Shown here piece by piece: positions 1 to 30,994 of a stretch of DNA of 32,000 bases; positions within the stretch are counted from its first letter, which is position 1, and every line of letters begins with the position of its first letter. The DNA comes from Synechococcus elongatus PCC 6301 (GTDB taxonomy: Bacteria; Cyanobacteriota; Cyanobacteriia; Synechococcales; Synechococcaceae): NCBI RefSeq assembly GCF_000010065.1, contig NC_006576.1, positions 30,001-62,000 on the forward strand, in the 5' to 3' direction. The translations under genes and the position numbers were made by a program. A model generated the notes under the pieces. That model saw nothing but the letters and a program-made list of their open reading frames with translations, had not been told where the DNA came from and did no database searches.

Positions 1-418
1 GTAGCGTCAGCCCCAGTTGGAGCCCAGGATGGTGCAGCCACATGGGAATGCCTGGAATTGAGATGCCTAGCATCATCGGCAGCGAGCCAATCACCAATAA
101 GCTGGCGATTAGTCCACTCACCCACACTCGCTGGGCCAATTGCCGTTGCGATCGGGCACGGCGATGCCGCTCCTGCGCTTCAACTTCGTTATCCCAGGGG
201 TCTTGGAGGGGAAAAGCGTGGTAGCCTGCAGCCTCAATAGCGGCCTGAATCGCTGCCACCTGAGTCAAAGCGGGGTCATAGCAGACCTGCGCCTGCTCTG
301 CACCAAAATTGACGCTGCACTCCTGCACCCCCGGCAATGCCTGAATGAGGGCTTCAATACGACCCGCACAAGCAGCACAGCCCATGCCTCGCAGCGTCAG
401 AGTTTGCTGATTGACCAT
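1..418 (-). CDS. pacS: Copper-transporting P1B-type ATPase, N-terminal part only (the gene runs off the left edge of the window)
   Basis: Absent from the ORF track because it is open at the window edge. Reading the reverse complement from the ATG (CAT at 416-418) gives MVNQQTLTLRGMGCAACAGRIEALIQALPGVQECSVNFGAEQAQVCYDPALTQVAAIQAAIEAAGYHAF... This is an HMA domain with the GMxCxxC copper-binding motif, followed by hydrophobic helices (WVSGLIASLLVIGSLPMMLGI). I recognise this N-terminus as S. elongatus PacS. Confidence 0.9.
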   Translation of the reverse strand, partial: MVNQQTLTLRGMGCAACAGRIEALIQALPGVQECSVNFGAEQAQVCYDPALTQVAAIQAAIEAAGYHAFPLQDPWDNEVEAQERHRRARSQRQLAQRVWVSGLIASLLVIGSLPMMLGISIPGIPMWLHHPGLQLGLTL

Positions 419-473
419 GACTGGACTCCAGACTCGAACGTAGCTCTAATCGTCCCCAGTCTTAAGTCTCTAG

Positions 474-489
474 TTGACTGCAGAGTCAA
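474..489. promoter_or_regulatory. Dyad TTGACT-GCAG-AGTCAA located 56-71 nt upstream of the pacS ATG; candidate operator and/or -35 element
   Basis: Perfect 6-bp inverted arms separated by 4 nt, read directly from the sequence. TTGACT is close to the sigma70 -35 consensus on either strand. No experimental support is visible. Confidence 0.3.
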
Positions 490-534
490 GACGAGTGACA
501 AAACTTCTCTTAAAAGCGCGATCGCCCTGCCCCA

Positions 535-546
535 GCCCAATTGGGC
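535..546. promoter_or_regulatory. Perfect 12-bp palindrome GCCCAATTGGGC in the pacS/MIP divergent spacer
   Basis: Read directly from the sequence. It lies in a 612-nt non-coding region with no credible ORF. Function unknown. Confidence 0.2.
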
Positions 547-882
547 CTCTTTCGACCTGCTCTACTGCTTGCTCCCAGACGTAGCCAAGCTGAGGAGAGA
601 ACGATCGGAGTCAAGCACATGTTAAGGCTCAAGTGCTTTGCCCGCTTGAGCGACGGCCCCTCGTCAATGCCTCTTTCGTTTTGTCGAACCGCATTGGATC
701 CACTAGCAACTATGAGCTTGAGCAGGACGTTTTAAGCATGTTGAGCTCTTCTATTGCCCCAGATTCAGCGCTCAGGCCTTCGTTACGCTAGTGGCATTGA
801 AGTCAGTTAGTTGAATGAGCTGTAATCAAGGTGCGATCGCCTTTCCTTTGGTTATTGGCTCACAACCTGAAGGGTAAACATT

Positions 883-971
883 AGGCTGACAGTCCGTGCT
901 GGCTTGAGTCAATCAGCCTGATCCGGTCAGTTGATCCCAGCCATCGCCTATCTCTGACTCGACTGGGATCA
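883..971 (+). promoter_or_regulatory. Two consecutive hairpins in the putative 5' leader of the MIP gene
   Basis: AGGCTGA (883-889) pairs with TCAGCCT (913-919). TGATCCCAG (932-940) pairs with CTGGGATCA (963-971), giving a 9-bp stem with a 22-nt loop that ends 60 nt before the ATG at 1032. The transcription start site is unknown, so calling this a leader is an inference. Confidence 0.3.
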
Positions 972-1031
972 TCATTCGTTCCTGCCTCTGCGCAACGACG
1001 ACCCACTCCATTCCTCTGCGATCCAGTCTCT

Positions 1032-1841
1032 ATGAAGATGCTTAGAGCACTTAAACACCACTGGCCAGAATACTTAATTGAAGCTTGGGGGCTTGGGCTG
1101 TTTATGGTGGCAGCTGGGGTTGTCGGAACGCTTGTCTTCTATCCCCAATCTCCTGCCTATCAAGCGATCGCAGACCCTTTCCTACAGCGAGTCGTGATGG
1201 GCTTGGGGATGGGTTTGACGGCAATGATCATCATGTATTCACCTTGGGGAAAGCGATCGGGGGCTCATATCAACCCAGCCGTAACGCTCACGTTCTACCG
1301 GCTTAAAAAAATTGCTGCCTGGGATGCTTTTTTCTACGTTGTTTTTCAGTTTATTGGTGGACTTCTAGGAGTCGTGCTGGTTGCCTTTTTACTACAAACT
1401 CCCTTTACCCAAGCACCGGTCAACTATGTAGTCACGGTCCCTGGAAAACAGGGGGCGATCGTTGCATGTATCGCAGAGTATTTCATTGCTGTACTCATGA
1501 TGAGTATGGTTCTCTTCACCAGCAATCAGCCAAAGCTAGAGCGATTCACTCCATTTTTTGCGGGCTGTCTCATTGTCAGCTACGTCATTTTTGAATCGCC
1601 GCTCTCAGGGTTTGGCATGAACCCTGCTCGAACCGTTGCCTCAGCTTTACCCTCGGGTATTTGGACAGCTATCTGGCTTTATTTCCTTGCACCGATCGCA
1701 GGCATGTTAACTGCAGCAGAACTCTATCTGCGAATGATCGGGCCTCGCAAAATCTTCTGTGCCAAGCTCTACCATGATCCTTTGTATCGCTGTATACACT
1801 GCGGCCATCTCATTCATTGGCATCGTCCTCATCTGAGATAG
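1032..1841 (+). CDS. MIP-family channel (aquaporin/aquaglyceroporin-like) with an atypical Cys/His-rich C-terminal tail
   Basis: 269-aa ORF. Both MIP signature loops are present (SGAHINPAVT and GFGMNPARTV) and about six hydrophobic helices are visible. The tail reads FCAKLYHDPLYRCIHCGHLIHWHRPHLR. An alternative start exists at M3 (1038). Confidence 0.9.
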   Translation: MKMLRALKHHWPEYLIEAWGLGLFMVAAGVVGTLVFYPQSPAYQAIADPFLQRVVMGLGMGLTAMIIMYSPWGKRSGAHINPAVTLTFYRLKKIAAWDAFFYVVFQFIGGLLGVVLVAFLLQTPFTQAPVNYVVTVPGKQGAIVACIAEYFIAVLMMSMVLFTSNQPKLERFTPFFAGCLIVSYVIFESPLSGFGMNPARTVASALPSGIWTAIWLYFLAPIAGMLTAAELYLRMIGPRKIFCAKLYHDPLYRCIHCGHLIHWHRPHLR

Positions 1842-1930
1842 GTCAAAAATATGGCTGCCAGACAGATTGGATGCGATCGCAGCCTAACAAAAGGCCTAGT
1901 TCACCTTATTAATAGCAATAATTGTGAATT

Positions 1931-1956
1931 TTTCTTATCCTCTAGGAGATAAGAAA
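1931..1956. promoter_or_regulatory. Imperfect palindrome TTTCTTATCCTC-TAG-GAGATAAGAAA inside an AT-rich spacer; candidate operator or weak terminator hairpin
   Basis: About 11 bp can pair with one bulged C, centred on CTAG. It sits 90 nt after the MIP stop codon and 350 nt before the GMC start codon. The surrounding 1900-2040 region is visibly AT-rich (TATAAAAAATAAAAGG). Confidence 0.25.
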
Positions 1957-2307
1957 CTTTATCCTTTGTCACCTCGCAGTCCACCCAAAGCAATGGTAAG
2001 TCTAGGGACATTTATAAAAAATAAAAGGTTCTAGCGCTCTCAAAAACGAGCGTTATGGTGAACTCGGTAGGCTTCAGTTCCAAACATCTGCCGAGTGGAG
2101 TAAATGTGTGGCCCGGATATTGACCAGGGTAGACTCCCGGCATCAACAAAGAAGGGGCTTAGGGGCTCTGATATATCCCGAGCAGCTTGCGCAGTTAGAG
2201 ACACCCTCTTCTGAGTGATGGTCTTGGCTAGTCGGTGCCTCCGCGCAATCTAATGGTGCGCCTTGATCGCCAACAGCTCCTTTGCTAACGCCTAAGATTT
2301 TTCCCCA

Positions 2308-3894
2308 ATGGCTATCAATCAAACTGACTACGACATTGTCATCATTGGCACTGGGGCTGGAGGAGGAACGCTACTCCATCGCCTTGCTCCAAGCGGCAAG
2401 AAGATTCTGATTCTTGAGCAAGGGCCTTATCTTCCCCGTGAAAAGGAAAACTGGAGCGCGACTGAGGTCTACGGCAAGGAGCGCTACCACACCCATGATC
2501 AGTGGTACGACAAACAGGGAACAGCCTTTCGACCCCAGATGAGCTACTGGGTAGGAGGCAACACCAAAGTTTATGGGGCTGCTTTGCTCCGTCTGCGGGA
2601 GCGCGACTTTGAAGCCGTTCAACATCGGGATGGGATCTCGCCCGAGTGGCCACTAAAATACGCAGACTTTGAGCCTTACTACAGTCAAGCTGAAGCCCTA
2701 TTTGATGTTCACGGCGAGGATGGCAACGATCCCACCGCCCCACCGCGCCAAACTCCTTACCCCTATCCGGCAGTCAGTCATGAACCCCGCATGCAGGAGA
2801 TCTATGACGGGCTGAAAGGACAAGGACTGAAGCCGTTCCATTTGCCCGTAGGTCTCAAACTTAACGAGACAGAGCGTGCCCTCTGGGACTGCATCCGCTG
2901 CGATAGCTGTGATGGTTTTCCCTGTTTGGTGCGGGGCAAAGCCGATAGTGAAGTTAATGCCGTCACACCAGCGCTGACTTACCCAAACGTCACCCTCAAG
3001 ACCGAGGCCAAAGTACTGCGGTTACTGACCAATGAATCGGGCCGCGAGGTGACGGCAGTGGAAACCCAAATTGGTGGTGAGACTGTTCTGTTCAAGGGCG
3101 ATGTGGTGGTGGTCAGTTGTGGCGCTGCGAACTCCGCCGCTCTGCTGCTGCGATCGGTGAGCGATCGCCATCCCAATGGCCTAGCCAACAGTTCCGATCA
3201 GGTCGGGCGCTACTTCATGAAGCACTTGACGACGGCGATGGTGGCACTTAACGCCAAGAAAAATGAGTCGGTCTACCAAAAAACGATCGCAGTCAGCGAC
3301 TTCTATTGGGGCGAAGACGGTTACGACTACCCAATGGGCTTCATCCAAAATACGGGCAATGTGTTGCCCGACATGATGCCGGCTGAAGCGCCGGGATTAC
3401 TGGCATCACTGCTCAAGTTCGTGCCCAGGCTGGATGTTGATTTAGGGCCTCAATACCAGGCTGCGGCTCAGCACTCAGTGGGCTGGTGGTTCCAAACGGA
3501 AGACCTGCCTGATCCAAACAATCGGGTGCGAGTCGTGAACGACCAAATTCATTTGGACTACACGCCAAATAACACTGAGTCGACTCAGCGCTTGGTTCAT
3601 CGCTGGATTGACATTCTGAAAGCAGTCGACCGTGCCGATCACGTTCTTCCCTTTGACCTCTATCCCCGCAGTAGTTCGCCCATTCAGGTGTTGGGACACC
3701 AGTGCGGCACCTGTCGCTTTGGGGAAGACCCGACAACATCAGTGCTCGATCTCAACTGTCAGGCTCACGATGTTGACAACCTCTATGTGGTTGACAGCAG
3801 CTTCTTCTGCTCCAGTGCTGCGGTCAACCCGACCTTGACGATCATTGCCAACGCTCTACGGGTGGGCGATCACCTGCTCGAGCGGCTGGGCTAG
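2308..3894 (+). CDS. GMC-family FAD-dependent oxidoreductase, resembling the flavoprotein subunit of sugar/gluconate dehydrogenases
   Basis: 528-aa ORF. N-terminal FAD Rossmann motif DIVIIGTGAGGG...ILILEQG. C-terminal GMC region HQCGTCRFGEDP...NLYVVDSSFF...VNPTLTIIANALR. Internal Cys cluster CIRCDSCDGFPC. Confidence 0.9.
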   Translation: MAINQTDYDIVIIGTGAGGGTLLHRLAPSGKKILILEQGPYLPREKENWSATEVYGKERYHTHDQWYDKQGTAFRPQMSYWVGGNTKVYGAALLRLRERDFEAVQHRDGISPEWPLKYADFEPYYSQAEALFDVHGEDGNDPTAPPRQTPYPYPAVSHEPRMQEIYDGLKGQGLKPFHLPVGLKLNETERALWDCIRCDSCDGFPCLVRGKADSEVNAVTPALTYPNVTLKTEAKVLRLLTNESGREVTAVETQIGGETVLFKGDVVVVSCGAANSAALLLRSVSDRHPNGLANSSDQVGRYFMKHLTTAMVALNAKKNESVYQKTIAVSDFYWGEDGYDYPMGFIQNTGNVLPDMMPAEAPGLLASLLKFVPRLDVDLGPQYQAAAQHSVGWWFQTEDLPDPNNRVRVVNDQIHLDYTPNNTESTQRLVHRWIDILKAVDRADHVLPFDLYPRSSSPIQVLGHQCGTCRFGEDPTTSVLDLNCQAHDVDNLYVVDSSFFCSSAAVNPTLTIIANALRVGDHLLERLG

Positions 3895-3962
3895 GTGAAT
3901 CCGCGTTTTCACAATTTTGATCCGTAGCTAGCTCTCACGAAACAACTCAAGGATGACTACCC

Positions 3963-4763
3963 ATGGGCAAACTCGATAATCAAATCGCGCTCGTTACAGG
4001 CAGTAGCCAAGGCATCGGCCAAGAAATTGCCATTCGGCTCGCCTCGGAAGGAGCCAGCGTTGTCATTGACTATCGCTCTCACCCGGAAGGTGCGGAAGAG
4101 ACTCGCAAGCAGGTAGAAGCGGCGGGTGCTCAATGTCATTTAGCCAAAGATCATGCGCCAGAAGGCTATGTGGTGCAGGCGGATCTGGGCGATGTCACCC
4201 AGGTTCGTAATCTTGTTGCCGAAAGCATTAAGCACTTTGGCAAGCTCGATATCTTAGTCAACAATGCTGGGATGGAACGGCGGGCTCCTTTCTGGGAGGT
4301 GACTGAGGCTGATTACGACATGGTTCTTAATGTCAATCTCAAGGGGGCTTTCTTTGCTGCTCAAGCGTTAGTACAACATCTTTTAGAAACAAAACGCCCT
4401 GGCAAGATTATCAATATCAGCTCCGTTCACGAAGAGTTGCCTTTCCCCAATTTTGCTTCCTATTGCCTCAGTAAAGGTGGCATCAAAATGATGACTCGCG
4501 ATCTGGCAGTTGAACTAGGAGAGTACGGGATTACGATCAATAATGTTGCCCCAGGGGCGATCGAGACGCCGATCAATACAAACCTGTTGAATAATCCAAC
4601 CGAGCTGAATGCACTCCTCGGTAATATCCCCCTAAAGCGCCTCGGCAAGCCCAAGGATATTGCTTCCCTTGTGCTATTTCTTGCATCCCCTGATGCTGAC
4701 TACATTACAGGCACAACGATCTTTGCTGATGGCGGACTGCTCTGGAATTACCACGAGCAATAG
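3963..4763 (+). CDS. Short-chain dehydrogenase/reductase, glucose 1-dehydrogenase-like
   Basis: 266-aa ORF with AAGGA 10 nt upstream of the start. Motifs TGSSQGIG (cofactor binding), NNAG, and the catalytic S...YxxxK (ISSVHEELPFPNFASYCLSKGG). PGAIETPIN and the overall sequence closely resemble Bacillus glucose 1-dehydrogenase as I remember it (INMSSVHE...YAASKGG...PGAINTPIN). Confidence 0.9.
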   Translation: MGKLDNQIALVTGSSQGIGQEIAIRLASEGASVVIDYRSHPEGAEETRKQVEAAGAQCHLAKDHAPEGYVVQADLGDVTQVRNLVAESIKHFGKLDILVNNAGMERRAPFWEVTEADYDMVLNVNLKGAFFAAQALVQHLLETKRPGKIINISSVHEELPFPNFASYCLSKGGIKMMTRDLAVELGEYGITINNVAPGAIETPINTNLLNNPTELNALLGNIPLKRLGKPKDIASLVLFLASPDADYITGTTIFADGGLLWNYHEQ

Positions 4764-4863
4764 GCAGGGATGACTGAGGTGATCGTTCCAGCCTTAGTGC
4801 TTGTTGGAGCGCCCTAATTCTGTTTTCGCGATCGCCCTATTTATCTCAGCTTGGAACAGCCTC

Positions 4864-7536
4864 ATGAATCCTGAACAACAGCGAATTCAGCAGAGCGTGG
4901 AACCCAATTCGCCTTGGCGACAATGGGGACCCTATCTGAGTGAGCGGCAGTGGGGCACGGTGCGCGAAGACTACAGTGCTGGCGGCGATGCTTGGGATTA
5001 TTTCCCCCATGATCATGCGCGATCGCGGGCTTATCGCTGGGGGGAAGATGGGCTGGGTGGTTTTTGCGATCGCCAAGCCAATATCTGCTTTGCGCTGGCC
5101 TTTTGGAATGGCAACGATCCCATTCTGAAAGAGCGGCTGTTTGGCTTGACAAATTCTGAGGGAAACCACGGGGAAGACGTCAAAGAATACTACTTTTACG
5201 TCGACAACACCCCTACCCACAGCTACATGCGCTGGCGGTATAAATATCCCCAAGCGGCCTACCCCTACGAGACACTTGTCACGGTCAATGGGCAGCGATC
5301 AAAGTTCGAGCCGGAGTATGAGCTGCTCGATACCGGCATTTTTGACAGCGGCTATTTCGATATCGAAGCGGAATATGCCAAAGCAACGCCATCTGACCTT
5401 GGCATTCGCCTCCAGATCACCAATCGCGGACTGCAAACTGCCCCGATCGCGGTGCTACCGACATTATGGCTGCGTAATACCTGGACTTGGACAGGGGAGG
5501 TGCCTGCCGGCAGGCTCACACAAGTTGATGACCAAGCGATCAAACTGAGCCACCGCGATTACGGCGATCGCTGGCTTTACTGCGATCGGGTAAATGGTGC
5601 CGAGCTAGAGCTGCTGTTTACCGACAACGAAACGAACTTTGCACGACTGTTTGGCAGCACTAATCCGTCGCCTTACGTCAAGGATGCGTTTCATCAATAC
5701 CTAATCGAAGGCGATCGCGAGGCAGTCAATCCGGTGCAGACCGGCACGAAAGCGGCGGCTTGCTATCGCTTAGAAATCCCAGCCGGCCAAACCGTCACGC
5801 TCCAACTTCGCTTTTGCGATCGCCCCCAGACTGCTGCTTTTGACACCGATTTTGCTGACAGCTTCAGCCAACGGCAGCAGGAAGCCGACGACTTTTACCA
5901 AACGCTCTTTCCTAAACTGGGCGACGGCGATCGCCTAATTCAGCGCCAAGCTTTAGCTGCTTTGCTCTGGAGTAAGCAGGTCTATCTCTACGAAGTGCAG
6001 ACTTGGCTGCAGGGTGATGCAGGACAACCACCGCCACCAAGTCCCCGGAGCAAGGGCCGCAATACCAATTGGCGCATGTTCTCTGCCAACGAGGTCATCC
6101 TCATGCCTGACAAGTGGGAATACCCTTGGTTTGCGGCTTGGGACTGGGCCTTTCACTGCGTCGTGATGGCACTCATCGATCCTGAGTTTGCCAAACAGCA
6201 GCTACGCCTGTTGCTAAGCGATAACTACGTCAGTCCTAAGGGTCAGATTCCGGCCTATGAGTGGGCCTTTGGTGATGTCAATCCGCCTGTTCAGGCTTGG
6301 GCCGCTTGGAAGATTTACCAATCAGAAAAGGTTAGAACTGGCGAGGGCGATCGCGAATTTCTACAGCAGATATTCCAGCGCCTGTTACCGAATTACTACT
6401 GGTGGCTGAACCGAGAAGACCGTGACGATAAGAGCCTATTCCAAGGCGGTTTTCTAGGACTGGATAACATCACAATTTTCAATCGCAGCGCTCCTCTCCC
6501 AACGGGCGGCTACCTTGAACAGTCCGATGGCACCGCTTGGATGGGACTGTTTTCGCTCAATATGCTGGCGATCGCCCTGGAGCTGAATCAGCAAGGCACG
6601 ATTTACGACCACGCGATCAGCAGCTTTGTGCGGCAGTTCCTCAACATTGCCCAGGCGATGAATCAAATGGGTGATGACAATCTGGCGTTGTGGGACGAGA
6701 CACACGGCTTCTACTTCAGTGCCCTCCGGCTCCCTGATGACAGTGAGGAGCAGCTACAGGTCTACTCCTTGGTGGGATTAGCGCCAATGCTGGCCGTGCT
6801 GACGCTGGAGCCTAAATTTGTCCATGACTTGTCTGACATTCAAGAGGTGATGGACTGGGCCGCCAAGCATCACCCGGAACTGATCAACAACGTTGTCTGC
6901 ACAACAACGGAATGCAGCGAACAACGCCATCTTCTCGCGATCGCTAGTCCTGATCAGCTGCGGCGGTTACTGCAGCGACTACTCAATGAGGACGAATTTC
7001 TGTCGCCCTACGGCATTCGCTCGATCTCGAAGGCCCATGCTCAAGACCCCTTCGTTCTTCACTATCAAGGCAACAGCTTCGGGGTGGACTACGAGCCGGG
7101 AGAATCGACCAGCGCCACCTTTGGCGGCAATTCCAACTGGCGCGGCCCGATCTGGTTCCCTATGAACTATCTCTTGATCGAAGCGCTACAGCGCTACTAC
7201 CACTACCTCGGCGACGAGTTCCAGGTTGAATGTCCCACTGGCTCAGGACAACTGATGACACTCAAACAGGTCGCCCAAGAACTGTCGCAACGGCTGGTCA
7301 ACATCTTCCGCACGCAACCTGATGGTTCTCGACCCACTTACGGCGACATCGAACGCTTCCAGATCGATCCCCACTGGCGTGATCTGCTGCTGTTCCATGA
7401 ATACTTCCACGGTGATACCGGCAAAGGTCTGGGCGCGAGTCAGCAAACTGGCTGGACTGCCTTGGTTGCCCAGTTGATTCAAGAACTAAACGACGAGACT
7501 TTCTACGACTCTCTGGGCTTGATGCCATCGTTTTAG
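4864..7536 (+). CDS. GH63-like (MGH1/YgjK-type) glycoside hydrolase, probable alpha-glucosidase
   Basis: The ORF is open from a TTG at 4801. I prefer the ATG at 4864 (MNPEQQRIQQ..., 890 aa) because the conserved block WGPYLSERQWGTVREDYS...YFPHDHARSRAYRWGEDG starts about 20 aa later. The family assignment comes from recalled similarity to 'probable glucosidase / MGH1-like' proteins. I did not locate catalytic residues. Confidence 0.8.
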   Translation: MNPEQQRIQQSVEPNSPWRQWGPYLSERQWGTVREDYSAGGDAWDYFPHDHARSRAYRWGEDGLGGFCDRQANICFALAFWNGNDPILKERLFGLTNSEGNHGEDVKEYYFYVDNTPTHSYMRWRYKYPQAAYPYETLVTVNGQRSKFEPEYELLDTGIFDSGYFDIEAEYAKATPSDLGIRLQITNRGLQTAPIAVLPTLWLRNTWTWTGEVPAGRLTQVDDQAIKLSHRDYGDRWLYCDRVNGAELELLFTDNETNFARLFGSTNPSPYVKDAFHQYLIEGDREAVNPVQTGTKAAACYRLEIPAGQTVTLQLRFCDRPQTAAFDTDFADSFSQRQQEADDFYQTLFPKLGDGDRLIQRQALAALLWSKQVYLYEVQTWLQGDAGQPPPPSPRSKGRNTNWRMFSANEVILMPDKWEYPWFAAWDWAFHCVVMALIDPEFAKQQLRLLLSDNYVSPKGQIPAYEWAFGDVNPPVQAWAAWKIYQSEKVRTGEGDREFLQQIFQRLLPNYYWWLNREDRDDKSLFQGGFLGLDNITIFNRSAPLPTGGYLEQSDGTAWMGLFSLNMLAIALELNQQGTIYDHAISSFVRQFLNIAQAMNQMGDDNLALWDETHGFYFSALRLPDDSEEQLQVYSLVGLAPMLAVLTLEPKFVHDLSDIQEVMDWAAKHHPELINNVVCTTTECSEQRHLLAIASPDQLRRLLQRLLNEDEFLSPYGIRSISKAHAQDPFVLHYQGNSFGVDYEPGESTSATFGGNSNWRGPIWFPMNYLLIEALQRYYHYLGDEFQVECPTGSGQLMTLKQVAQELSQRLVNIFRTQPDGSRPTYGDIERFQIDPHWRDLLLFHEYFHGDTGKGLGASQQTGWTALVAQLIQELNDETFYDSLGLMPSF

Positions 7537-7548
7537 GGGCCTGCGACG

Positions 7549-9594
7549 ATGACCATTACTTTCGGCCGAGAGATTTGTAGTGATCTCGCGATCGCCCAGC
7601 AGCGCGAATGGCTGGTCACTAACGGAATTGGTGGTTACGCCTCAGGCACGGTCGCTGGACTTCCGACTCGCAGCTACCACGGACTTTTAGTAGCAGCGCT
7701 GAAGCCACCCCTCGATCGCACCTTGCTAGTCACACATCTCGATGAGCAAGTCGACTATGGCAAGCTATCGCTGCCTTTGAGTACGACCCGCTGGGTTGAC
7801 GGCACCGTTGCTCCTCGAGGCTACGAGCAGATTGAGCAGTTTGGGTTGGAGGGCACCATACCGGTCTGGCAATTTGCGATCGCCGATGCCCGACTAGAAA
7901 AGCGAATCTGGATGGAGCCGGGCGCCAACACCACCCTTATTTCCTATCGTTTTGAACGGGGCAGTCTGCCGCTGCAGCTTACCGTTAAGGGGCTGGTCAA
8001 CTATCGCGGTTACCACAGTCGCACCCAGGCGGGCGATTGGCGCATGGATGTGCAGCCCGTCGATCGCGGCTTGAAGGTAACAGCTTTTCCAGAAGCGACT
8101 CCTTTCTATTTGTTCGCAACTTGGGGCAAGTGGGCGATCGCCCCTGAGTGGTATCGCGACTTTGAGCTGGCAGTTGAGGCCGAACGAGGACTGGACGATC
8201 GCGATGACAACCTGAGGGTGGGTTCGCTGACGGTGACGCTCAATCCCGGTGAGACGCTTTGCCTTATTGCCAGTACTGAAGCCAGCCCGGATCTGGATGC
8301 GGCGGCTTCCCTCCAGCGCTACCAAGATCGGACGCAAGCCAAGCTCCAACAATGGCAGGCAGCGAATCCGACCTTGGCGGATCAAGCCCCTGATTGGGTG
8401 CGGCAACTGGTGTTGGCGGCAGATCAGTTCATTGTCGATCGTCCGCTGCCCAATCATCCCCAGGGCAAAAGCATTCTCGCGGGTTACCACTGGTTCGCCG
8501 ACTGGGGTCGAGACACGATGATCAGCCTACCGGGGTTGACGCTAGCGACAGGTTGGCCCGATCTCGCCCGAGAAATTCTGCTCACGTTCGCCCAGTTTGT
8601 TAGTCAGGGAATGTTGCCTAATCGCTTCCCTGACGATGGCAATCCCCTCACCGATGCCGACTACAACACGGTGGATGCCACCCTTTGGTATGTGGAAGCT
8701 GTCCGTCAATACCTCGATTGCAGTGGGGATAAGACGCTACTGGCCGAGATTTTTCCAGTGCTGCAGAACATCATTGGCTGGCATCAACGGGGCACCCGCT
8801 TCAATATTCACCTTGATCCTCAAGATGGTCTGCTGACTGCGGGAGCAGCAGGTGTGCAGCTCACTTGGATGGATGCCAAAGTTGGCGACTGGGTAGTGAC
8901 GCCTCGCATTGGTAAGCCAGTCGAGATCAATGCCCTTTGGTATGCCGCCCTGCGATCGCTGGCTCACTTTGCTCGGTGTTTAGGGCAGCCCAGCACTGAC
9001 TACGACCAACTGGCAGAAGCGACCTTGCAGGGATTTCAGCGGTTTTGGCAAGCAGATCGGGGCTACTGTTTCGATGTACTCGACAGCCCCACGGGGTCAG
9101 ATGCTAGCCTACGCCCCAATCAACTGCTAGCAATTTCCCTCGGTTGCGATCGCGATCAGCCGGCACTACTCACGCCTGACCAGCAACAACAGGTGGTGAC
9201 CCTCTGCGGTCAGCAGTTATTAACGTCTTTTGGACTGCGGAGTCTCGATCCTCGTCATCCGCAATATCAGGGGCACTACGGCGGCGACCAAACCCAGCGC
9301 GATGCGGCTTATCACCAAGGCACCGTTTGGGCTCGGCTCTTGGGCTCTTTTGCGATCGCCCACTATGCCGCCTTTGGCGATCGCGCCTTGGCAGCTCAGG
9401 TTTTGCAACCGATCGCCCATCACTTGCAAACTGCAGGGCTGGGAACGATTAGCGAAATCTTTGATGGCGATGCACCCTTTCTCCCGCGCGGCTGCATTGC
9501 CCAAGCTTGGTCCGTGGGTGAAATTCTGCGCGCTTGGACAGTGATTCACCAGACGGCAGTGTCCCCTGATCCTGCTGCGATCGCTCTGACCTGA
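7549..9594 (+). CDS. Archaeal-type glycogen debranching enzyme (GH133 amylo-alpha-1,6-glucosidase domain)
   Basis: 681-aa ORF beginning 12 nt after the GH63 stop codon. N-terminal GDE_N-like block EWLVTNGIGGYASGTVAGLPTRSYHGLLVAAL. C-terminal (alpha/alpha)6 region with GYHWFADWGRDTMISLPGL and QAWSVGEILRAW. Confidence 0.85.
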   Translation: MTITFGREICSDLAIAQQREWLVTNGIGGYASGTVAGLPTRSYHGLLVAALKPPLDRTLLVTHLDEQVDYGKLSLPLSTTRWVDGTVAPRGYEQIEQFGLEGTIPVWQFAIADARLEKRIWMEPGANTTLISYRFERGSLPLQLTVKGLVNYRGYHSRTQAGDWRMDVQPVDRGLKVTAFPEATPFYLFATWGKWAIAPEWYRDFELAVEAERGLDDRDDNLRVGSLTVTLNPGETLCLIASTEASPDLDAAASLQRYQDRTQAKLQQWQAANPTLADQAPDWVRQLVLAADQFIVDRPLPNHPQGKSILAGYHWFADWGRDTMISLPGLTLATGWPDLAREILLTFAQFVSQGMLPNRFPDDGNPLTDADYNTVDATLWYVEAVRQYLDCSGDKTLLAEIFPVLQNIIGWHQRGTRFNIHLDPQDGLLTAGAAGVQLTWMDAKVGDWVVTPRIGKPVEINALWYAALRSLAHFARCLGQPSTDYDQLAEATLQGFQRFWQADRGYCFDVLDSPTGSDASLRPNQLLAISLGCDRDQPALLTPDQQQQVVTLCGQQLLTSFGLRSLDPRHPQYQGHYGGDQTQRDAAYHQGTVWARLLGSFAIAHYAAFGDRALAAQVLQPIAHHLQTAGLGTISEIFDGDAPFLPRGCIAQAWSVGEILRAWTVIHQTAVSPDPAAIALT

Positions 9595-9636
9595 TCACCT
9601 ACCTTGGGCTACTTGACCCGTCTTTCTTAGCTGCCC

Positions 9637-11028
9637 ATGACCCCAGACTCCCACAGCTTTGTCTCCTCGCTCCTCGCATCACGGATGCGATTCCGACGCT
9701 TTCTCGAAGCCTCTGAGGGACTTAATCTGGTGCTGCTTTGGGCCGCGATCGCGGGGTTGATGGTCGGGCTGGTGGGTGGCGCTTTTCGTTGGCTGACCTC
9801 GGCTACTCTGAACGGGCGTGTCCGCTGGCTAGCGTCTTTGCCTCAAGGGCCGGAATTAGTTGCCTCAGTCCTGCTGTCTAGCGGGATGGTAGCACTGGGG
9901 TTTTACCTGATGCGCCGCTTCGCTCCCGATACGTCTGGTAGCGGCATTCCCCAAATTGAAGGCTGGCTAGCCGGTTTTTTCTCACTGTTCTGGTGGCGGG
10001 TGTTGCCGGTGAAATTTCTCGCTGGCATTTTGACCCTCGGCAGTGGCATGGTCATGGGTCGCGAAGGCCCGACGATTCAAATGGGCGGTGCGATCGGTCA
10101 GATGGTCTCGGACTGGTTTCGAGCTTCAACCGAGCAAGCGCGGGTGCTGGTGGCAGCGAGTGCTGGGGCTGGTTTAGCAACTGCTTTCAATGCACCCTTA
10201 GCCGGAATCGTCTTCGTTTTTGAAGAAATGCGGCCCACCTTTCAGAATCGCCTGAGAGCTTATCAGGCCGTGACGATCGCCTGCATTACCGCGACGATTG
10301 GTCTCCAGCTCCTACTCGGCAAAGGACCCACGATTGAGCTGGCGCAGTTTGGGGCGCCGCCCCTCTCCTCTCTCTGGGTGTTTGTGCTGCTGGGGCTGGC
10401 TTGTGGAGCGATCGGCTATAGCTTTAACCGGCTGCTGGTCTGGAGTCTCAACTGCTTTGCCACCCTCCATGGACTGCCCCTGCGGCTAACAGGGCTGGGC
10501 GTTGGTGGTTTCATTGGCTTGGTCAGCTGGCTCTATCCTCCCGCAACCAACAGTGGCGAAAATCTGGTGCTTTGGGCGTTTGATACGGTCGAGCCGATCC
10601 ACACATTGCTGTTACTGTGCAGCCTGCGATTTGCCCTGACGCTCCTCTGTTATGGCTCCGGCGCACCGGGCGGGATCTTTGCTCCACTGCTCTCGATCGC
10701 TACTTTGTTTTCTCTAGGATTGGGGCAATTAACGATCGACTGGTTGCCAGGATTATTGCTGCCGCCGGAGGTACTTGCGATCGCGGGGATGGGAGCATTC
10801 GTTGCGGCCACCATTCAGTCACCGCTGACCGCCATTTTGTTAACGACTGAAATTACCAGTAACTATCAACTCATCCTGCCGATCATGGTGAGTTGCTCGG
10901 CAGCAACCCTGATCGCTCATGGACTGGGCAGCCGCCCCATCTATACGGTCTTGCTCGAACGGCAACTGGCTAAGGCAGGGATTGCTGTGCCAACACCGAA
11001 GGCTCAGAATGGGGCGATCGATCTTTAG
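9637..11028 (+). CDS. Canonical CLC-type Cl-/H+ antiporter (ClC-ec1-like, no cytoplasmic domain)
   Basis: 463-aa ORF. All CLC signature segments are intact: GSGIPQIEG, GREGPTIQMGG, FVFEEMRP, GGIFAP, SNYQLILP. Confidence 0.9.
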   Translation: MTPDSHSFVSSLLASRMRFRRFLEASEGLNLVLLWAAIAGLMVGLVGGAFRWLTSATLNGRVRWLASLPQGPELVASVLLSSGMVALGFYLMRRFAPDTSGSGIPQIEGWLAGFFSLFWWRVLPVKFLAGILTLGSGMVMGREGPTIQMGGAIGQMVSDWFRASTEQARVLVAASAGAGLATAFNAPLAGIVFVFEEMRPTFQNRLRAYQAVTIACITATIGLQLLLGKGPTIELAQFGAPPLSSLWVFVLLGLACGAIGYSFNRLLVWSLNCFATLHGLPLRLTGLGVGGFIGLVSWLYPPATNSGENLVLWAFDTVEPIHTLLLLCSLRFALTLLCYGSGAPGGIFAPLLSIATLFSLGLGQLTIDWLPGLLLPPEVLAIAGMGAFVAATIQSPLTAILLTTEITSNYQLILPIMVSCSAATLIAHGLGSRPIYTVLLERQLAKAGIAVPTPKAQNGAIDL

Positions 11029-11229
11029 CAAAGTATCTGCAGATTACCCACAGCAGCCATTGTTTTAGCTGAGACTGTCTCAAGGGCGAAACAAGGAGAC
11101 TTAAGTTGTCCTAGAGGTAGAGGATTGTCCTCTTCACTAACCGTCCTAACTAGACGAGAGACCGCTCTAAATGAGGTTAGAGCTTTGATAGCAACAGCCT
11201 CATTCATCTGCCCCGAAAACGATCGCGTC

Positions 11230-12984
11230 TTACATCCGCTCCAGCACCGAGATTCCCAGCAGCGATAGGCCTAGCTTGAGAGTTCGTGCCGTCAAGTCGC
11301 AGAGCAATAGACGGCTGGTGCGCTGGGGTTCTTCCGCGTTGAGAATTGGGCAGCGATCGTAGAACTGGTTGAAGGTTTGGCTCAGTTCAAACAGATAGCT
11401 GCAAAGGCGATTTGGCAGCAGGTCGCGGGCGACTTCATCTAGGACTTCACCTAGTTGCAACACTTGCTTCGCCAGCGATCGCTCAGTGGGTTCCGTCAGC
11501 TCTGCAGCCACGGGATCCAGTTGCGCAAAATCAATGCCACCTTTGCGAGCAATGCCCTGAATCCGCACGTAGGCGTAGAGCAGATAAGGCGCCGTATTGC
11601 CTTGCAGCGCCAGCATCTTGTCAAAGCTAAAGATGTAGTTGCTGTTGCGGTTCTGGCTAAGGTCAGCGTACTTCACCGCGCCAAGACCAACCGCTTGCGC
11701 CACGGCTTCAATAAATTCCGGGGTTTCCGATCGCTCTTCAGCAGCAATGCGGGTCGTCAGATCCGTGCGAGCCCGATCGACCGCTTCATCTAGCAGATCC
11801 CGCAGACGGACCGTGTCACCAGCGCGAGTTTTCAGCTTTTTACCGTCTTCTCCCTGCACTAGCCCAAAAGGGACATGCTCAATCTGCGCAGCCGCTGGCA
11901 ACCAACCCGCTCGTTGCGCCACTTGGAAAACTTGGGCAAAGTGATTGGCCTGCCCCGAATCCGTAACGTAGATAATCCGCTGGGCCTGATCTTGACCCAG
12001 GCGATAACGCAGTGCTGCCAAATCCGTCGTGGCGTAGTTATAGCCACCGTCACTTTTCTGGACAATCAGCGGCAAGGGCTGACCTTCTTTGTTCTGGAAG
12101 CCCTCCAGAAACACGCATTGTGCGCCCTGGTCTTCCACCAGCAGACCCAGTCGCCGCAGGTCTTCAACGATCGCTGGCAGATAGGGATTGTAGAAGCTCT
12201 CACCCCGTTCTTCGAGCTGAATATCGAGGCGATCGTAGATTTTCTGAAATTCGCGCCGCGATTGATCGCAAAGCAACTGCCATGCCTGACGCGCCGTAGC
12301 TTCACCCGACTGCAGATCGACCACGCGCTGCCGAGCCGTCTCTTGGAAGCTCGGGTCTTCGTCAAAGCGCGCCTTGGCCTGTTTGTAGAACGCTACCAAG
12401 TCACTGATATCCAGTGCATCTGGCTGACTGAGGGCCTGCGGATATTGCTCCTGCAGGAAGGCAATCAACATGCCAAACTGGGTGCCCCAATCGCCGACGT
12501 GGTTGAGCCGCAGCACCTCATGGCCTTGGAACTCCAGCACCCGCGCAATACTGTCACCAATAATCGTCGATCGCAGGTGACCAACATGCATTTCCTTGGC
12601 AATGTTGGGGCTAGAAAAGTCGACGATCACGCGCTGCGGTGGGCTGACCGGTTGAATCCCTAGCCGTTCATCCGTCTGCAGTTGTTGCAGTTGCGCAACT
12701 AAATAGGACGGCTGCAGCGTGAAGTTGATGAAGCCCGGCCCCGCGATCGCAGGCGGTTCACAGAGATCGGCCAGATTAAGATTTTGAACAAGGGTTTCTG
12801 CGATCGCCCGAGGTGGTTGGCCAAGTTGCTTCGCCAAAGACATTGCCACATTCGACTGATAGTCGCCGAACTTAGGATTGGTGGCGGGCACAAGCAGAGG
12901 ATCCGTCGCTGCCCACTCGGGACCAAAGCTCGCGGCCAATGCCGCTTGAAAGCGATCGCGAAGTTGCGCGAGAGGGGCAGCCAT
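11230..12984 (-). CDS. argS: Arginyl-tRNA synthetase
   Basis: The ORF is open to 13002 ([10 protein letters not shown]...). The start at M7 (12984, [12 protein letters not shown]...) matches the usual ArgS N-terminus, although the ATG at 13002 has GGAGA 11 nt upstream, so both remain possible. Class I HIGH motif (EMHVGHLRS), the tRNA-binding and anticodon-binding regions, and the C-terminal ...LGISVLERM are typical of ArgS. Confidence 0.95.
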
Positions 12985-13140
12985 TACCAAAATCTTGAGC
13001 ATGCTTGGGACAATCTCCCCATCATCTCACCGTTCAGCAGCCGTCAGCCCGCAGGCAGTCTCAGCAGTCGAGGCTTGAGCAGAGACAGGGTCTTGAGTGA
13101 GCACGATGATTCTGGACTGCAGGCAAGATCTAGGCGAGGC

Positions 13141-13980
13141 CTAACCCTCGACCGAGACTTCTTCTTCAGGGCGATCGCTGCAGAGGAATTTCACCAGAAC
13201 AGTTCCAAACAAATAGAGCGCTGTTACGGCGCCGGCCAGCAAGCTTTGGGTCAGTGGATCGGTCGAAGGCGTTAGCACGGCGCCCAGAACGACAGCAGCC
13301 AGCAGTACATAGCGCCAGCCCGCCAGCATACGCCGGGCATCCACAATTCCCAGTGCACCTAAAATGAGCTGCACCACGGGAACCTGAAACGCCAGGCCCG
13401 TGCTGAACAACAGCAACAGCACAAACTCGAAGTAGCGCTCGATCGACCAAATTTGCTCGACGACATCCGCGCCGTAACTGGCAAAAAAGTTGAGTGCTGC
13501 TGGAATCAATAGCCAGTAAGCAAAGCCCAAACCCGCCCAAAACAGCACCGAGGAGCCTAAGACCACGGGTGTGAGGATGCGTCGTTCACGTCGGGTGAGC
13601 CCGGGCAAAACAAAGCGGATGACGTGGTAGAGGATGATTGGGCTGGCCAACAAGAGGCCGCTGTAGCCTGCGACTTTGATCGAAACAAAGAAGAACTCGC
13701 CAGGTGAAAGCTGCAGGAAGCGAATCCCTTGGGCGGGGCGCTCCAAAAATGCCACCAGCGGACGCACGCCGACGAAGCAGGCGATCGCACTCACCGCCAC
13801 CGCTGCCACACTGTAAAACAGACGCTGCCGCAGTTCTTCGAGGTGATCGAACAACGACATTTCCACATCGTCTTCGGGCAATGCCTCTGCCTCAGGTTCC
13901 GGTTCTGAGGCCGGAGTCTCCGAAGGACGATAGAGGGTCGGCGCTGCCGTAGTTTCCAGATCGGAGGAGGGTGGCGTCAT
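13141..13980 (-). CDS. tatC: Twin-arginine translocase subunit TatC
   Basis: 279-aa ORF. An acidic N-terminal extension precedes the TatC core ([17 protein letters not shown]...), and six hydrophobic helices are visible. Confidence 0.95.
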
Positions 13981-14155
13981 GATTCACCAGCGCAGCAGTC
14001 TTTCCCATTGTGGAGTACCTCGCGGCAATGCGAGAGTCCCCGGCTCGACTCAGCAGTGCTTGGCAGTAGTTGGGCGATCGCGCCAAGCAGTCTGAGAGAA
14101 AGGTTAGCGTCTCGAATTATGAGGGATAACTCTGACCGCCTCGATTGGTTCGCCT

Positions 14156-17792: not shown

Positions 17793-19181
17793 CTATTTGC
17801 CGATACAAAAGCGGCTAAAGATCAGATCCAACATCGACTCGGCGATCCCTTCGCCGGTGATTGAACCAAGCGCAGCAATCGCTTCTCGCAAATCAATCGT
17901 CCAAAAGTCGAGAGGAAGTTGCGCTTGCAAGGTTTCTTCGACACGTCGCAGGGCAGTTTGAGCAGTTGTCAAGGCGGCAACTTGCCGTTGATTCAAGGCC
18001 CAATCCCAATTGGCACTGGTTAAGTCGCCAGTTCCGACTGCTGCCAGAATGGCGGCTTCTAAATCCTCAATCCCTTTTTGTTGTGCAGCGGCTGTCCAAA
18101 CGATCGCCTTAAACTCCTGCTGCGGCAGAGCGATCGCGTGGCGTTCTGCTTCTGACAGGCGATCGCGTTTGTTGATGACTAATAGGATAGGGCGATCGCT
18201 CACTGCTTCCCAAATGGTTTGATCCTCAGCGCTCCAACCGGCACTGGCATCGATCGTCAGCAGCACGAGGTCGGCTGACTGAGCGGCTCGGCGCGATCGC
18301 TCAACCCCAATTTGCTCCACCTGATCGCTGGTTTCGCGGATACCAGCCGTATCTAGGACTTGCACGGGAATACCGCCGACGATCAGCTGCGATTCCACCA
18401 AATCGCGAGTCCTACCGGGTAGGTCAGTGACAATGGCGCGATCGCAGCGACTCCAAGCATTGAGCAGGCTGGATTTACCGACATTGGGTCGCCCCACGAT
18501 CGCAATCTTCAGGCCCGTACGCAACAGTTCCCCGCGATCGGCAGTTGATAAAATCGCTTGCATGTCCGCACCCGCAGCCGTTAATTGAGCGGCGATCGCC
18601 TCCAAATCCAACGGCGGTAGATCGTCTTCAAAATCGATGCGGGCTTCGACTTCCGCCAAAATGTCCAGACAGCGATCGCGGAGCTGGCGAATCGGGTGCC
18701 CTAACTTGCCCTGTAAGCTCCCTAGTGCAGCCTGTGCTGCTTGAGGCGATTGGGCACTAATCAAATCGGCAATACTCTCGGCCTGACTAAGATCCAAGCG
18801 GCCATTCAAAAAGGCCCGCAGCGTAAACTCTCCCGGTTCTGCCAGCCTTGCGCCAGCCCGAATGCAGAGTTGCAGCGTTTGCTGAACTGGCATCAAACCG
18901 CCGTGGCAGTGCAACTCGACCACGTCTTCCCGCGTATAGGAGCGGGGTGCCAACATTGGCAATAACAGCGCCTCATCAACCAGTCTCCCCGACTCTGGAT
19001 CGCGAATATAACCGTAGAGAATGCGGTGGCTTTCCCAAGGTTGTTGCCCGGCAATCTGAAAAATCTGGCGAGCGATCTCAGTTGCTGCCGCCCCCGACAG
19101 TCGCACGATGCCAACACTGCCCTGTTGAGGAACAATGGCAGTGGCGATCGCAGCAATGGTGTCGCCTGAAAAACCGACCAT
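17793..19181 (-). CDS. mnmE: tRNA modification GTPase MnmE (TrmE)
   Basis: The ORF is open to 19241, but the start at M21 (19181, [15 protein letters not shown]...) gives the conserved N-terminus [10 protein letters not shown]-domain motifs [13 protein letters not shown] and NKRD are present, as is the invariant C-terminal CIGK. Confidence 0.95.
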
Positions 19182-19209
19182 GCGAGCTGAACAAGGAGCA
19201 ACGGTTCCG

Positions 19210-19716
19210 GTGTTATTATCCGCCCGCCAGCGTCGATACACTTGGCCGCAACGTTGGCAACGCCGCTGTCGCTATTGGTATTACCGCGCGTTGCGCCTTG
19301 AAACCTGCCCGAAAGCACTGGCACGGGGGATTGGTCTGGGTGTGTTTGCCGGCTGCTTCCCGCTATTTGGTCTGCAGATTTTGATTGGGGTCAGCCTCGC
19401 TACGATTCTGAGAGGCAACAAGGTTCTAGCGGCGGCTGCAACCTGGATCAGCAATCCCTTCACCTATCTGCCGTTGTTCAGCTTCAATTTCCAGTTGGGG
19501 CGGCTGTTTGTGCCCACCGACAACCGCCTGCTGACTCTGGAAAAGCTTAGCTCTTGGCAAACGCTGCAGGACTTAGGAAGCGACTTCCTCCATGCCTTGA
19601 TGTTGGGTAGCCTTCTGGTGGCGATCGCCCTTGGCTTTGCTGCCTACTGGATTAGTTTGCATTTGGCACAACGGCACCATCAGCAGCGCCGTCACCGTCG
19701 TGCCGCCAACGATTGA
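19210..19716 (+). CDS. DUF2062-family membrane protein
   Basis: The conserved core [42 protein letters not shown]...NPFT is recognised as DUF2062. The start is ambiguous: GTG at 19210 (AAGGAG at 19193-19198), ATG at 19180, or ATG at 19135. Confidence 0.75.
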
Positions 19717-21130: not shown

Positions 21131-21170
21131 TCCTCTATTAGACCGCTTCCAGTTGGCTGCAACGAGTTTC

Positions 21171-30904: not shown

Positions 30905-30978
30905 ATACCGCTAGAGTGTAGATTGGTGCGTACCCCCTGGGATCCACCAAATCCCACATTCTCCCTCTCATCCGTGTC

Positions 30979-30984
30979 AGGAGA
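30979..30984 (+). promoter_or_regulatory. Shine-Dalgarno AGGAGA for ado
   Basis: Located 10 nt upstream of the ATG at 30995. Confidence 0.6.
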
Positions 30985-30994
30985 CCGCAGACTC

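Follow-up and report, generated by a model that had tools for sequence, protein, structure and literature searches.

What could a channel, two dehydrogenases, two glycoside hydrolases and an ion exchanger be doing side by side in a cyanobacterium? This question is raised by a 32,000-nucleotide (nt) stretch of the chromosome of Synechococcus elongatus PCC 6301 (NC_006576.1, positions 30,001 to 62,000; the window), in which six open reading frames (ORFs) follow one another on the plus strand in the order MIP, GMC, SDR, GH63-like, GH133 and ClC. We consider it moderately probable that the genes are functionally linked in one module which is induced at dusk in an RpaA-dependent manner, and by which stored sugar is broken down without phosphorolysis and oxidised directly. 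The genes, their counterparts in PCC 7942 and the family models that they match are as follows:

1032-1841, plus strand: MIP-family channel (equivalent of Synpcc7942_1571), Pfam MIP
1842-2307, plus strand: spacer of 466 nt between the MIP and GMC genes, intergenic, with blocks identical to S. elongatus IITB7
2308-3894, plus strand: GMC flavoprotein dehydrogenase with a putative Fe-S motif (Synpcc7942_1572), GMC_oxred_N and GMC_oxred_C
3963-4763, plus strand: SDR, probable NAD(P)+ glucose 1-dehydrogenase (Synpcc7942_1573), NF005559
4864-7536, plus strand: GH63-like glycoside hydrolase of 890 amino acids (Synpcc7942_1574), MGH1-like_GH and Glyco_hydro_63
7549-9594, plus strand: stand-alone GH133 of 681 amino acids (Synpcc7942_1575), GDE_N and GDE_C, TIGR01561
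9637-11028, plus strand: ClcA-type H+/Cl- exchanger (equivalent of Synpcc7942_1576), NF003640

The five genes from GMC to ClC had been recognised in a first-pass annotation as a same-strand string with gaps of 68, 100, 12 and 42 nt, and had been read there as a route from glucan to oxidised glucose. The ORF coordinates reproduce these gaps, and all five family assignments hold in comparisons with Pfam, NCBIfam and PDB. The gaps apply to a GH63-like gene that starts at ATG 4864: the mechanically called ORF begins at TTG 4801, but the N-termini of homologues and the published PCC 7942 annotation (1633895-1636567) agree on ATG 4864 as the real start. Downstream of ClC, argS and tatC lie on the opposite strand. 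In the supplementary table of Puszynska & O'Shea 2017, Synpcc7942_1572, 1573 and 1574 occupy positions 1631339-1632925, 1632994-1633794 and 1633895-1636567. Our genes have the same lengths and spacings, and the block is therefore the Synpcc7942_1571-1576 region of a PCC 7942-type chromosome.

This correspondence gives access to expression data, all of which are published RNA-seq results for PCC 7942. In an rpaA deletion strain, transcripts of 1572, 1573 and 1574 fall to 1-13% of the wild type at dusk and in early dark (mutant to wild-type ratios of 0.013-0.05, 0.012-0.06 and 0.03-0.13, respectively), and the three genes are among about 90 whose expression is abrogated in this strain, together with glgP, gap1 and gnd (Puszynska & O'Shea 2017). 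Genes 1572 to 1574 thus belong to the RpaA-dependent dusk regulon. Moreover, 1571 to 1575 are all upregulated in the subjective night with log2 fold changes of 1.7 to 3.5 (1.7 for 1571), and 1574 and 1575 form one operon, the only one of the block reported in the literature (PMC11889915, 2025). Unrelated expression patterns, which the first-pass annotation had named as grounds for giving up a common pathway, were not seen.

Is the arrangement kept elsewhere? The block from MIP to ClC (1035-10970) has a collinear counterpart in S. elongatus IITB7, with a nucleotide identity of 79-88% and different DNA on either side. Beyond the species, we analysed a broad set of 80 loci with GH63-like homologues (50-57% identity) from a collection of one genome per species; the loci come from Acidobacteriota, Nitrospirota, Chloroflexota, Verrucomicrobiota, Planctomycetota, Gemmatimonadota, Proteobacteria, Eremiobacterota and Cyanobacteria. 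Neighbours were counted within 10 kb among the 43 loci with 6 kb or more of sequence on either side. GH133 is the commonest neighbour of the GH63-like gene (16 of 43 loci), often directly adjacent and on the same strand, followed by a glucose dehydrogenase (13 of 43), which is either an SDR with the glucose dehydrogenase signature or the non-homologous MDR type PF16912, and by an orthologous GMC protein (11 of 43; 48-58% identity, same Cys motif). MIP was found in eight of the 43 loci, a tandem-VOC protein, always next to GMC, likewise in eight, an SMP-30 lactonase in five and ClC in none; Zwf and short Gnd-like genes also recur in this set. Because the block is collinear in IITB7 between different flanks and its parts recur across phyla, chance alone does not account for the juxtaposition. 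Conserved co-occurrence extends over Cyanobacteria, Acidobacteriota, Nitrospirota, Verrucomicrobiota, Gemmatimonadota, Proteobacteria and Eremiobacterota, which answers another of the objections foreseen for the pathway.

The order of the partners varies from locus to locus, although the clusters remain compact (loci are labelled L): MIP-...-lactonase-...-GMC-VOC-FMN reductase-MOSC-GH63-NTP transferase-MDR glucose dehydrogenase-GH133 in L002, lactonase-...-GMC-VOC-GH133-GH63 in L012, and MIP-GMC-VOC-...-GH63-GH133-...-SDR in L008. Reciprocal look-ups that started from GMC and from the SDR returned SDR-GH63-MIP-GMC in Aliinostoc, GH63-MIP-GMC in Lyngbya aestuarii, SDR-MIP-NDH2-like-DoxX-GMC in Pseudanabaena, SDR-MIP-FNR-like-VOC-...-GH63 in Chroococcidiopsis and SDR-GMC-(GH63 remnant)-MIP-GMC-VOC in Anthocerotibacter. 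The remnant in Anthocerotibacter panamensis (L088, 8939-9190) is an ORF of 83 amino acids between a GMC paralogue and MIP that corresponds to the C-terminus of the GH63-like protein; in this organism the hydrolase has decayed, and MIP, GMC, SDR, VOC and lactonase are retained. In a Terriglobia genome (L001), two GH63-like paralogues (10001-12643 and 18664-21342) lie 6 kb apart, and an MDR glucose dehydrogenase, NDH-2 and a flavoprotein with Pyr_redox_2 and dimerisation domains are encoded between them.

The strongest single argument for glucose as the shared intermediate comes from replacement: in six loci, the unrelated MDR-type glucose dehydrogenase (PF16912) stands in for the SDR beside the GH63-like gene. 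The earlier proposal that the released glucose is oxidised at C1 is supported by this replacement and by the recurring SMP-30 lactonase, Zwf and Gnd-like genes.

What can be said about the individual proteins? The GH63-like protein scores 83.1 bits with Pfam MGH1-like_GH (cut-off 27) and 38.6 bits with Glyco_hydro_63 (cut-off 22.4), and no NCBIfam model matches. Its AlphaFold2 model (pTM 0.86, pLDDT 77.7) predicts an N-terminal beta-sandwich and a C-terminal (alpha/alpha)6 barrel, and over the full length the fold is closest to the fungal, murine and yeast alpha-glucosidase I of the endoplasmic reticulum (E 4e-20, TM 0.54-0.62), followed by E. coli YgjK. The architecture is the same as in alpha-glucosidase I, YgjK and the mannosyl- or glucosylglycerate hydrolases, and the C-terminal motifs align, whereas identity to solved GH63 enzymes is 10-14% and the profile E-values are 1e-6 for yeast glucosidase I and 0.15 for the Thermus mannosylglycerate hydrolase. 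The invariant residues D534 (GLDN...R) and E846 (HEYF), candidates for the catalytic Asp/Glu pair of clan GH-G, lie within stretches that align in sequence with GH63 motifs; the active-site loops of the model have pLDDT below 50. Known GH63 enzymes act on small glucosides or mannosides, i. e. on kojibiose-type linkages, nigerose and mannosyl- or glucosylglycerate. The family to which the window protein belongs comprises 4083 clusters at 50% identity (E <= 1e-30), and we found no characterised member of this clade in the literature.

The GH133 protein scores 395 bits with GDE_C and 251 bits with GDE_N (Pfam, E 1e-118), it passes TIGR01561 (370.1 against a cut-off of 364.15), and its motifs WGRD, TWMD and YHQG align with the glucosidase domain of the yeast glycogen debranching enzyme (GDE). 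It shares GDE_N, GDE_C and the conserved motifs with the glucosidase domain of the eukaryotic enzyme and with the stand-alone GH133 of Sulfolobus, whose null mutant over-accumulates glycogen. In contrast to the eukaryotic GDE, however, the protein lacks a fused GH13 4-alpha-glucanotransferase domain: its 681 amino acids align with the glucosidase part only, and TIGR01531 gives 83 bits against a cut-off of 1399. Therefore, a separate transferase or another mode of debranching would be needed. An exact-sequence look-up of the window protein returned no record, and an assayed bacterial stand-alone GH133 was not found in the literature. In PMC11889915, 1575 is labelled 'malQ/amylomaltase' and 1574 'GDB1'; the former label, which implies a GH77 amylomaltase, can be rejected, as both Pfam and NCBIfam place 1575 in GH133.

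For the SDR, the top matches in the PDB are the glucose 1-dehydrogenases of Bacillus megaterium (1e-60), and the protein passes the NCBIfam model NF005559 'glucose 1-dehydrogenase' (231.8 against a cut-off of 215). The catalytic Ser, Tyr and Lys are kept in SSVHE and YxxxK, as is PGAIxTPIN, in alignments to 1RWB and 1GEE and by motif comparison. Identity to the B. megaterium enzyme is about 40%, calculated with a sequence of the latter that is consistent with the 1GEE alignment; the family named by the first-pass annotation stands, but its wording 'very similar' to the Bacillus enzyme was too strong. Cyanobacterial orthologues (72-86% identity) are widely annotated as glucose 1-dehydrogenase. 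The protein is a probable NAD(P)+ glucose 1-dehydrogenase as judged from these comparisons, and the older annotation of 1573 as a 3-oxoacyl-ACP reductase is probably wrong.

The closest solved relatives of the GMC protein are the alpha subunit of the Burkholderia cepacia FAD-glucose dehydrogenase (8e-31) and the large subunit of the Gluconobacter fructose dehydrogenase (3e-29), as found with phmmer. The low-confidence AlphaFold2 model ranks the same two enzymes first (Foldseek 5e-27 to 2.5e-23, compared to 1e-17 or weaker for pyranose oxidases). A Cys motif, C195-IR-C198-DS-C201-DGFP-C206, lies where both enzymes bind 3Fe-4S, aligns with the Cys cluster of the FAD-glucose dehydrogenase and is invariant or nearly so in orthologues of other phyla and in 28 cyanobacterial homologues. 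Its spacing is CxxCxxCx4C as compared to CCx4Cx3C in the Fe-S relatives, and Fe-S ligation is here predicted from the sequence alone. The His of HQxGT and the Asn of AVNP, which we take to be the catalytic pair of GMC enzymes, are conserved. The window protein thus resembles the Burkholderia enzyme and the fructose dehydrogenase of Gluconobacter japonicus in the FAD domain, the His and Asn motifs and the Cys cluster at the 3Fe-4S position. Those enzymes, however, are periplasmic heterotrimers with a small subunit that acts as the hitch-hiker for twin-arginine translocation (Tat) and with a multi-haem cytochrome c, whereas the window protein has no signal peptide, no partner gene nearby, about 22% identity and another Cys spacing. 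Candidates for a missing partner were considered and rejected: an ORF of 98 amino acids after GMC in L082 looks non-coding, the 83-amino-acid ORF in L088 is the GH63-like remnant described above, and the 466-nt spacer holds no conserved small ORF. Tat hitch-hiking via the VOC partner was likewise dismissed, as the N-termini of the VOC proteins look Sec-type and have no twin arginine. Cyanobacterial GMC orthologues have extra invariant cysteines at the His motif, H464-Q-C466-G-T-C469, and C484; orthologues from other phyla are without them and have HQNGT[IV] instead.

The first-pass annotation had treated MIP and ClC alike as flanking channels that might tie the pathway to osmotic or ionic adjustment. 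This view has to be revised for MIP, which is a core partner of the module (see the neighbour counts above); ClC is a lineage-specific neighbour outside the conserved core. The MIP protein scores 96.8 bits with Pfam MIP and falls slightly under the cut-off of TIGR00861; the family models reject an assignment as AqpZ, it is not a clear GlpF either, and its top relative in the PDB is of the NIP2;1 type. It has two NPA motifs and a Phe six residues before the arginine of the second NPA motif, a spacing that we take to be that of the selectivity-filter Phe of GlpF. Orthologues with 45-85% identity lie beside GMC or SDR genes in many phyla. Moreover, module-linked MIP proteins share a cytoplasmic C-terminal tail, CAKL[HY]H-x4-5-(R)CIFxC (residues ~240-269), with three Cys and at least two His residues, which is conserved from cyanobacteria to Acidobacteriota and Nitrospira (L002, L008, L034, L043, L046, L052, L068, L081, L085, L088 and L089) and which looks like a metal-binding or redox-sensing motif.

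The spacer between MIP and GMC contains blocks that are identical to IITB7, whereas the adjoining coding DNA is 79-88% identical: a run of 44 nt at window positions 2086-2129 (AACATCTGCCGAGTGGAGTAAATGTGTGGCCCGGATATTGACCA) and a second block of about 60 nt around TTTATAAAAAATAAAAGG. The spacer has no Rfam match and no conserved ORF. Judging by this pattern of identity, the GMC-SDR unit probably has its promoter and 5' leader here, and an RpaA site is another role that the spacer may have. In the surrounding DNA, a consensus scan for promoters and terminators (600-11400) yielded fewer matches than shuffled sequences and none inside the intergenic gaps, and an Rfam search of window positions 1-14000 gave no match at E <= 0.1. 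A hairpin in the SDR-GH63 spacer (-32 kcal/mol) was discarded, as it is not significant (z = -1.7).

The ClC protein is a member of the ClcA equivalog NF003640 (569.5 against a cut-off of 350) and has the motifs GSGIP, GREGP, GIFAP and FEEM, which cover the selectivity filter and the gating and internal glutamates. It adjoins the block in IITB7, in a cyanobacterial metagenome-assembled genome, in a JGI contig and in Planktothrix. Membership in the module was rejected: ClC accompanies the GH63-like gene in none of the 80 broad-set loci (0 of the 43 well-flanked ones), and its recurrence is confined to the nearest cyanobacterial relatives. A second ClC gene lies 13 kb downstream on the minus strand (24225-26804); its product is much larger (859 amino acids) and combines two CBS domains with a domain of the universal stress protein family.

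How could these proteins work together? Gene order, family membership, the conserved neighbourhood and the RpaA-dependent co-expression are shown by the data above, whereas all substrates and products in the following scheme, and likewise the acceptor of electrons and what becomes of gluconate, are what we infer. The GH133 and GH63-like proteins, both (alpha/alpha)6 hydrolases, would liberate glucose from small alpha-glucosides or from dextrins that derive from glycogen; like the other enzymes of the cluster, they are predicted to be cytoplasmic from the absence of signal peptides. The CAZy families GH63 and GH133 use an inverting mechanism, so the product of hydrolysis would be beta-D-glucose. 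Glucose dehydrogenases of the class EC 1.1.1.47 are specific for this anomer, and the SDR would oxidise it to glucono-1,5-lactone (then gluconate) and NAD(P)H. The GMC protein would be an FAD and Fe-S dehydrogenase rather than an oxidase, taking electrons from glucose, gluconate or a glucoside and handing them to a quinone, a cytochrome or a ferredoxin-type acceptor and thus to dark respiration. MIP would be a genuine partner in this process, and the ClcA exchanger a clade-specific addition.

Several observations weigh against this proposal. It assigns no particular role to MIP, and the known GH63 substrates are small molecules rather than alpha-1,4-glucan. The SDR stays below the cut-off of the stricter model NF006493 (258.4 against 420) and is without the C-terminal tail YP(S/G)F..G(R)G of the Bacillus-type enzymes; it ends with LLWNYHEQ, an ending common to its cyanobacterial orthologues, whereas the glucose dehydrogenase-like SDRs of other phyla retain TLYPGF..GG. 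The structural model of the GMC protein is weak (pLDDT 64) and was used for ranking relatives only, and no gene for a small subunit or a cytochrome c subunit was seen in the window or in those related loci that were inspected. None of eight partner types checked was present in 17 of the 43 loci, and GH133 is absent from many otherwise complete modules (L085, L087, L089 and L091), several of them cyanobacterial. In L002, L012, L043 and L052, the tandem-VOC protein, a long SMP-30 lactonase, an HbpS-like/cupin protein and a 246-amino-acid protein carry Sec-type signal peptides, which the GMC protein does not, and part of the chemistry in the non-cyanobacterial modules is thus, as predicted from these peptides, extracytoplasmic. 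With respect to regulation, 1571, 1575 and 1576 are not in the rpaA list. Finally, a scan of the larger ORFs in the 32-kb window (those left out of it include 29105-29992, 30089-30904 and 30923-31690) turned up neither a gluconate kinase nor a lactonase or dehydratase, and PMC11889915 states that no gluconate kinase or lactonase has been identified in PCC 7942. Gluconate would therefore have no known onward route, and the entry into the oxidative pentose phosphate or Entner-Doudoroff pathways that the first-pass annotation had proposed is unsupported for this organism.

Can the block be explained in another way? It might serve the turnover of a compatible solute or small glucoside, with the GH63-like enzyme cleaving a substrate related to glucosylglycerol, glucosylglycerate, trehalose or sucrose, MIP serving as the channel for water or for the small neutral aglycone set free (glycerol, for instance), the dehydrogenases taking the glucose and perhaps a polyol, and ClC providing ionic adjustment. 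The activity of characterised GH63 and MGH1-like enzymes on small glycosides, as reflected by the name of the Pfam family and the relatives in the PDB, is in line with this idea, as are the presumed GlpF-like Phe spacing of MIP, its position as a core partner across phyla, and the MFS sugar transporter and ClC genes beside the GH63-like gene in L083 and L084. In Plectolyngbya, moreover, genes for TAL/PGI, Gnd-like, Zwf, an S6PP-like phosphatase, aldolase, Pgl, a GH100 invertase, MIP, GMC and GH63 lie on one strand, and the invertase and the S6PP-like phosphatase are thus linked to MIP-GMC-GH63. However, S. elongatus PCC 7942 is a freshwater strain; it uses sucrose, and no synthesis of glucosylglycerol or glucosylglycerate is known from it. 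In addition, the most frequent single neighbour is GH133, genes for GH15-like proteins, alpha-amylase and NTP transferase lie near some of the loci, and the expression of the block follows the dusk regulon of glycogen catabolism rather than a salt response. We therefore regard small-glucoside turnover as a rather unlikely explanation. A still somewhat less likely one divides the block into two co-regulated sub-modules that are together only through a shared dark or dormancy regulon: an MIP-GMC redox or stress unit that acts on a molecule other than glucose (a polyol, an aldehyde or a peroxide-related compound), with the VOC, lactonase and HbpS-like proteins as its partners elsewhere, and a GH63-GH133-SDR sugar unit. 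MIP, GMC and VOC are indeed kept in Anthocerotibacter with only the 83-amino-acid hydrolase remnant, the Pseudanabaena string (SDR-MIP-NDH2-like-GMC) has no GH63-like gene, and MIP and GMC abut or overlap in L008, L068 and L085. The ECF sigma factor, anti-sigma-like, SpoIIE, FMN reductase and MOSC genes interspersed in the loci of Acidobacteriota and the signal peptides of the VOC, lactonase and HbpS partners fit as well. Yet GMC directly adjoins the GH63-like gene in L062, L034, L085 and L010, the closest characterised relatives of GMC all oxidise sugars, and the glucose dehydrogenase-type SDR is linked to MIP and GMC as tightly as to the GH63-like gene. That unrelated genes came to lie together by chance or through history alone and share no pathway, an explanation for which the gaps of 68 and 100 nt and the 466-nt spacer would leave room for independent promoters, on which the consensus scan was not informative, and to which the 17 partner-free GH63-like loci could be reconciled, is effectively excluded: specific orthologues recur in varied orders in at least seven phyla, the block is kept as a unit between different flanks in two S. 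elongatus lineages, and 1572, 1573 and 1574 are all strongly RpaA-dependent.

Respiratory genes accompany the module repeatedly, as seen across all loci examined and not just in the 43-locus set. In the verrucomicrobial L062 (10362-12817), cydA-cydB directly follow GH63-GMC-MFS-SDR. The closest cyanobacterial relative outside S. elongatus (L082, 3502-9842) has two DUF2231 genes, COX2-COX1-COX3 and an NDH-2-like Pyr_redox_2 gene between the SDR and the GH63-like gene, Kamptonema (L086, 1-6091) has a COX2-COX1-COX3 and NDH-2-like set beside SDR-GH63, and an NDH-2 gene is present in L001, L034, L043 and L090. The Plectolyngbya string described above, with its Gnd-like, Zwf and Pgl genes, provides a link to the oxidative pentose phosphate pathway. 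It is tempting to go one step further and to propose that MIP, the Fe-S GMC protein, the glucose dehydrogenase-type SDR and the GH63-like hydrolase are an ancient respiratory module shared across phyla, in which the soluble GMC protein would dock on the conserved, cytoplasmic Cys/His tail of MIP, and MIP, as a membrane anchor or a partner gated by redox state, would pass electrons on to chains of NDH-2 and terminal oxidases. This is speculative, and we think it improbable. If true, it would describe a new kind of channel-dehydrogenase complex and would provide the first function for the GH63-like family of more than 4000 sequence clusters; a reserve sugar would be released hydrolytically and oxidised without investment of ATP.

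The dusk-induced breakdown and oxidation of stored sugar that we favour is not without precedent, and the novelty claimed by the first-pass annotation was overstated: a night route from glycogen via glucose to gluconate has already been proposed for Synpcc7942_1571-1575, with no comparative or biochemical evidence offered (PMC11889915, 2025), and a shunt from glycogen via free glucose to gluconate has genetic and biochemical support in obligate methanotrophs (PMC8062543; Rozova et al. 2021). In the methanotrophs, as may be the case here, an SDR-type NAD(P)+ glucose dehydrogenase oxidises the free glucose that glycogen yields, and it does so in an organism that does not grow on sugar and mobilises an internal reserve. 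There, however, gluconate kinase completes the route to 6-phosphogluconate, whereas no linked kinase is found here. In addition, amy lies immediately upstream of gntK in the methanotrophs and the neighbourhood of gdh is not described (PMC8062543), while the window SDR is embedded with the GH63-like, GH133, Fe-S GMC and MIP genes. Among cyanobacteria, homologues of the B. megaterium glucose dehydrogenase (1GCO-like) from Lyngbya aestuarii and Spirulina sp. act specifically on glucose, with a preference for NADP+, and gluconate kinase was demonstrated; the glucose dehydrogenase/gluconate kinase bypass was shown for Lyngbya and disproved for Synechocystis (bioRxiv 10.64898/2026.04.01.715859). These enzymes and the window SDR have the Bacillus homologue in common, but orthology between them is not established: the assayed Lyngbya and Spirulina enzymes were not found by name in the top 120 matches to the SDR, and the GH63-MIP-GMC locus of Lyngbya has no SDR within 10 kb. 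Thus, the kind of pathway is already known, and what is new here is the conservation of the neighbourhood across phyla. As far as we found, the assembly of a GH63-like clade, a stand-alone GH133, a partner-less Fe-S GMC protein and an MIP with a Cys/His tail, often next to NDH-2 or terminal oxidases, is undescribed. For three large families in it, i. e. the GH63-like clade, the bacterial stand-alone GH133 and the partner-less Fe-S GMC proteins, we found no assayed member, and the module also holds a distinctive MIP subfamily.

The use of free glucose and gluconate by cyanobacteria at night is contested, as the Entner-Doudoroff pathway, and also the glucose dehydrogenase/gluconate kinase bypass, have recently been retracted for Synechocystis but shown for Lyngbya. 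With the cluster, a concrete test case under clock control becomes available in PCC 7942, a model strain amenable to genetics, and it is relevant for the engineering of night-time carbon partitioning in production strains. Finally, its conservation and the repeated insertion of terminal oxidase and NDH-2 genes suggest a general module that may allow bacteria to wake from starvation, or to survive it, on stored glucan without a cost in ATP.

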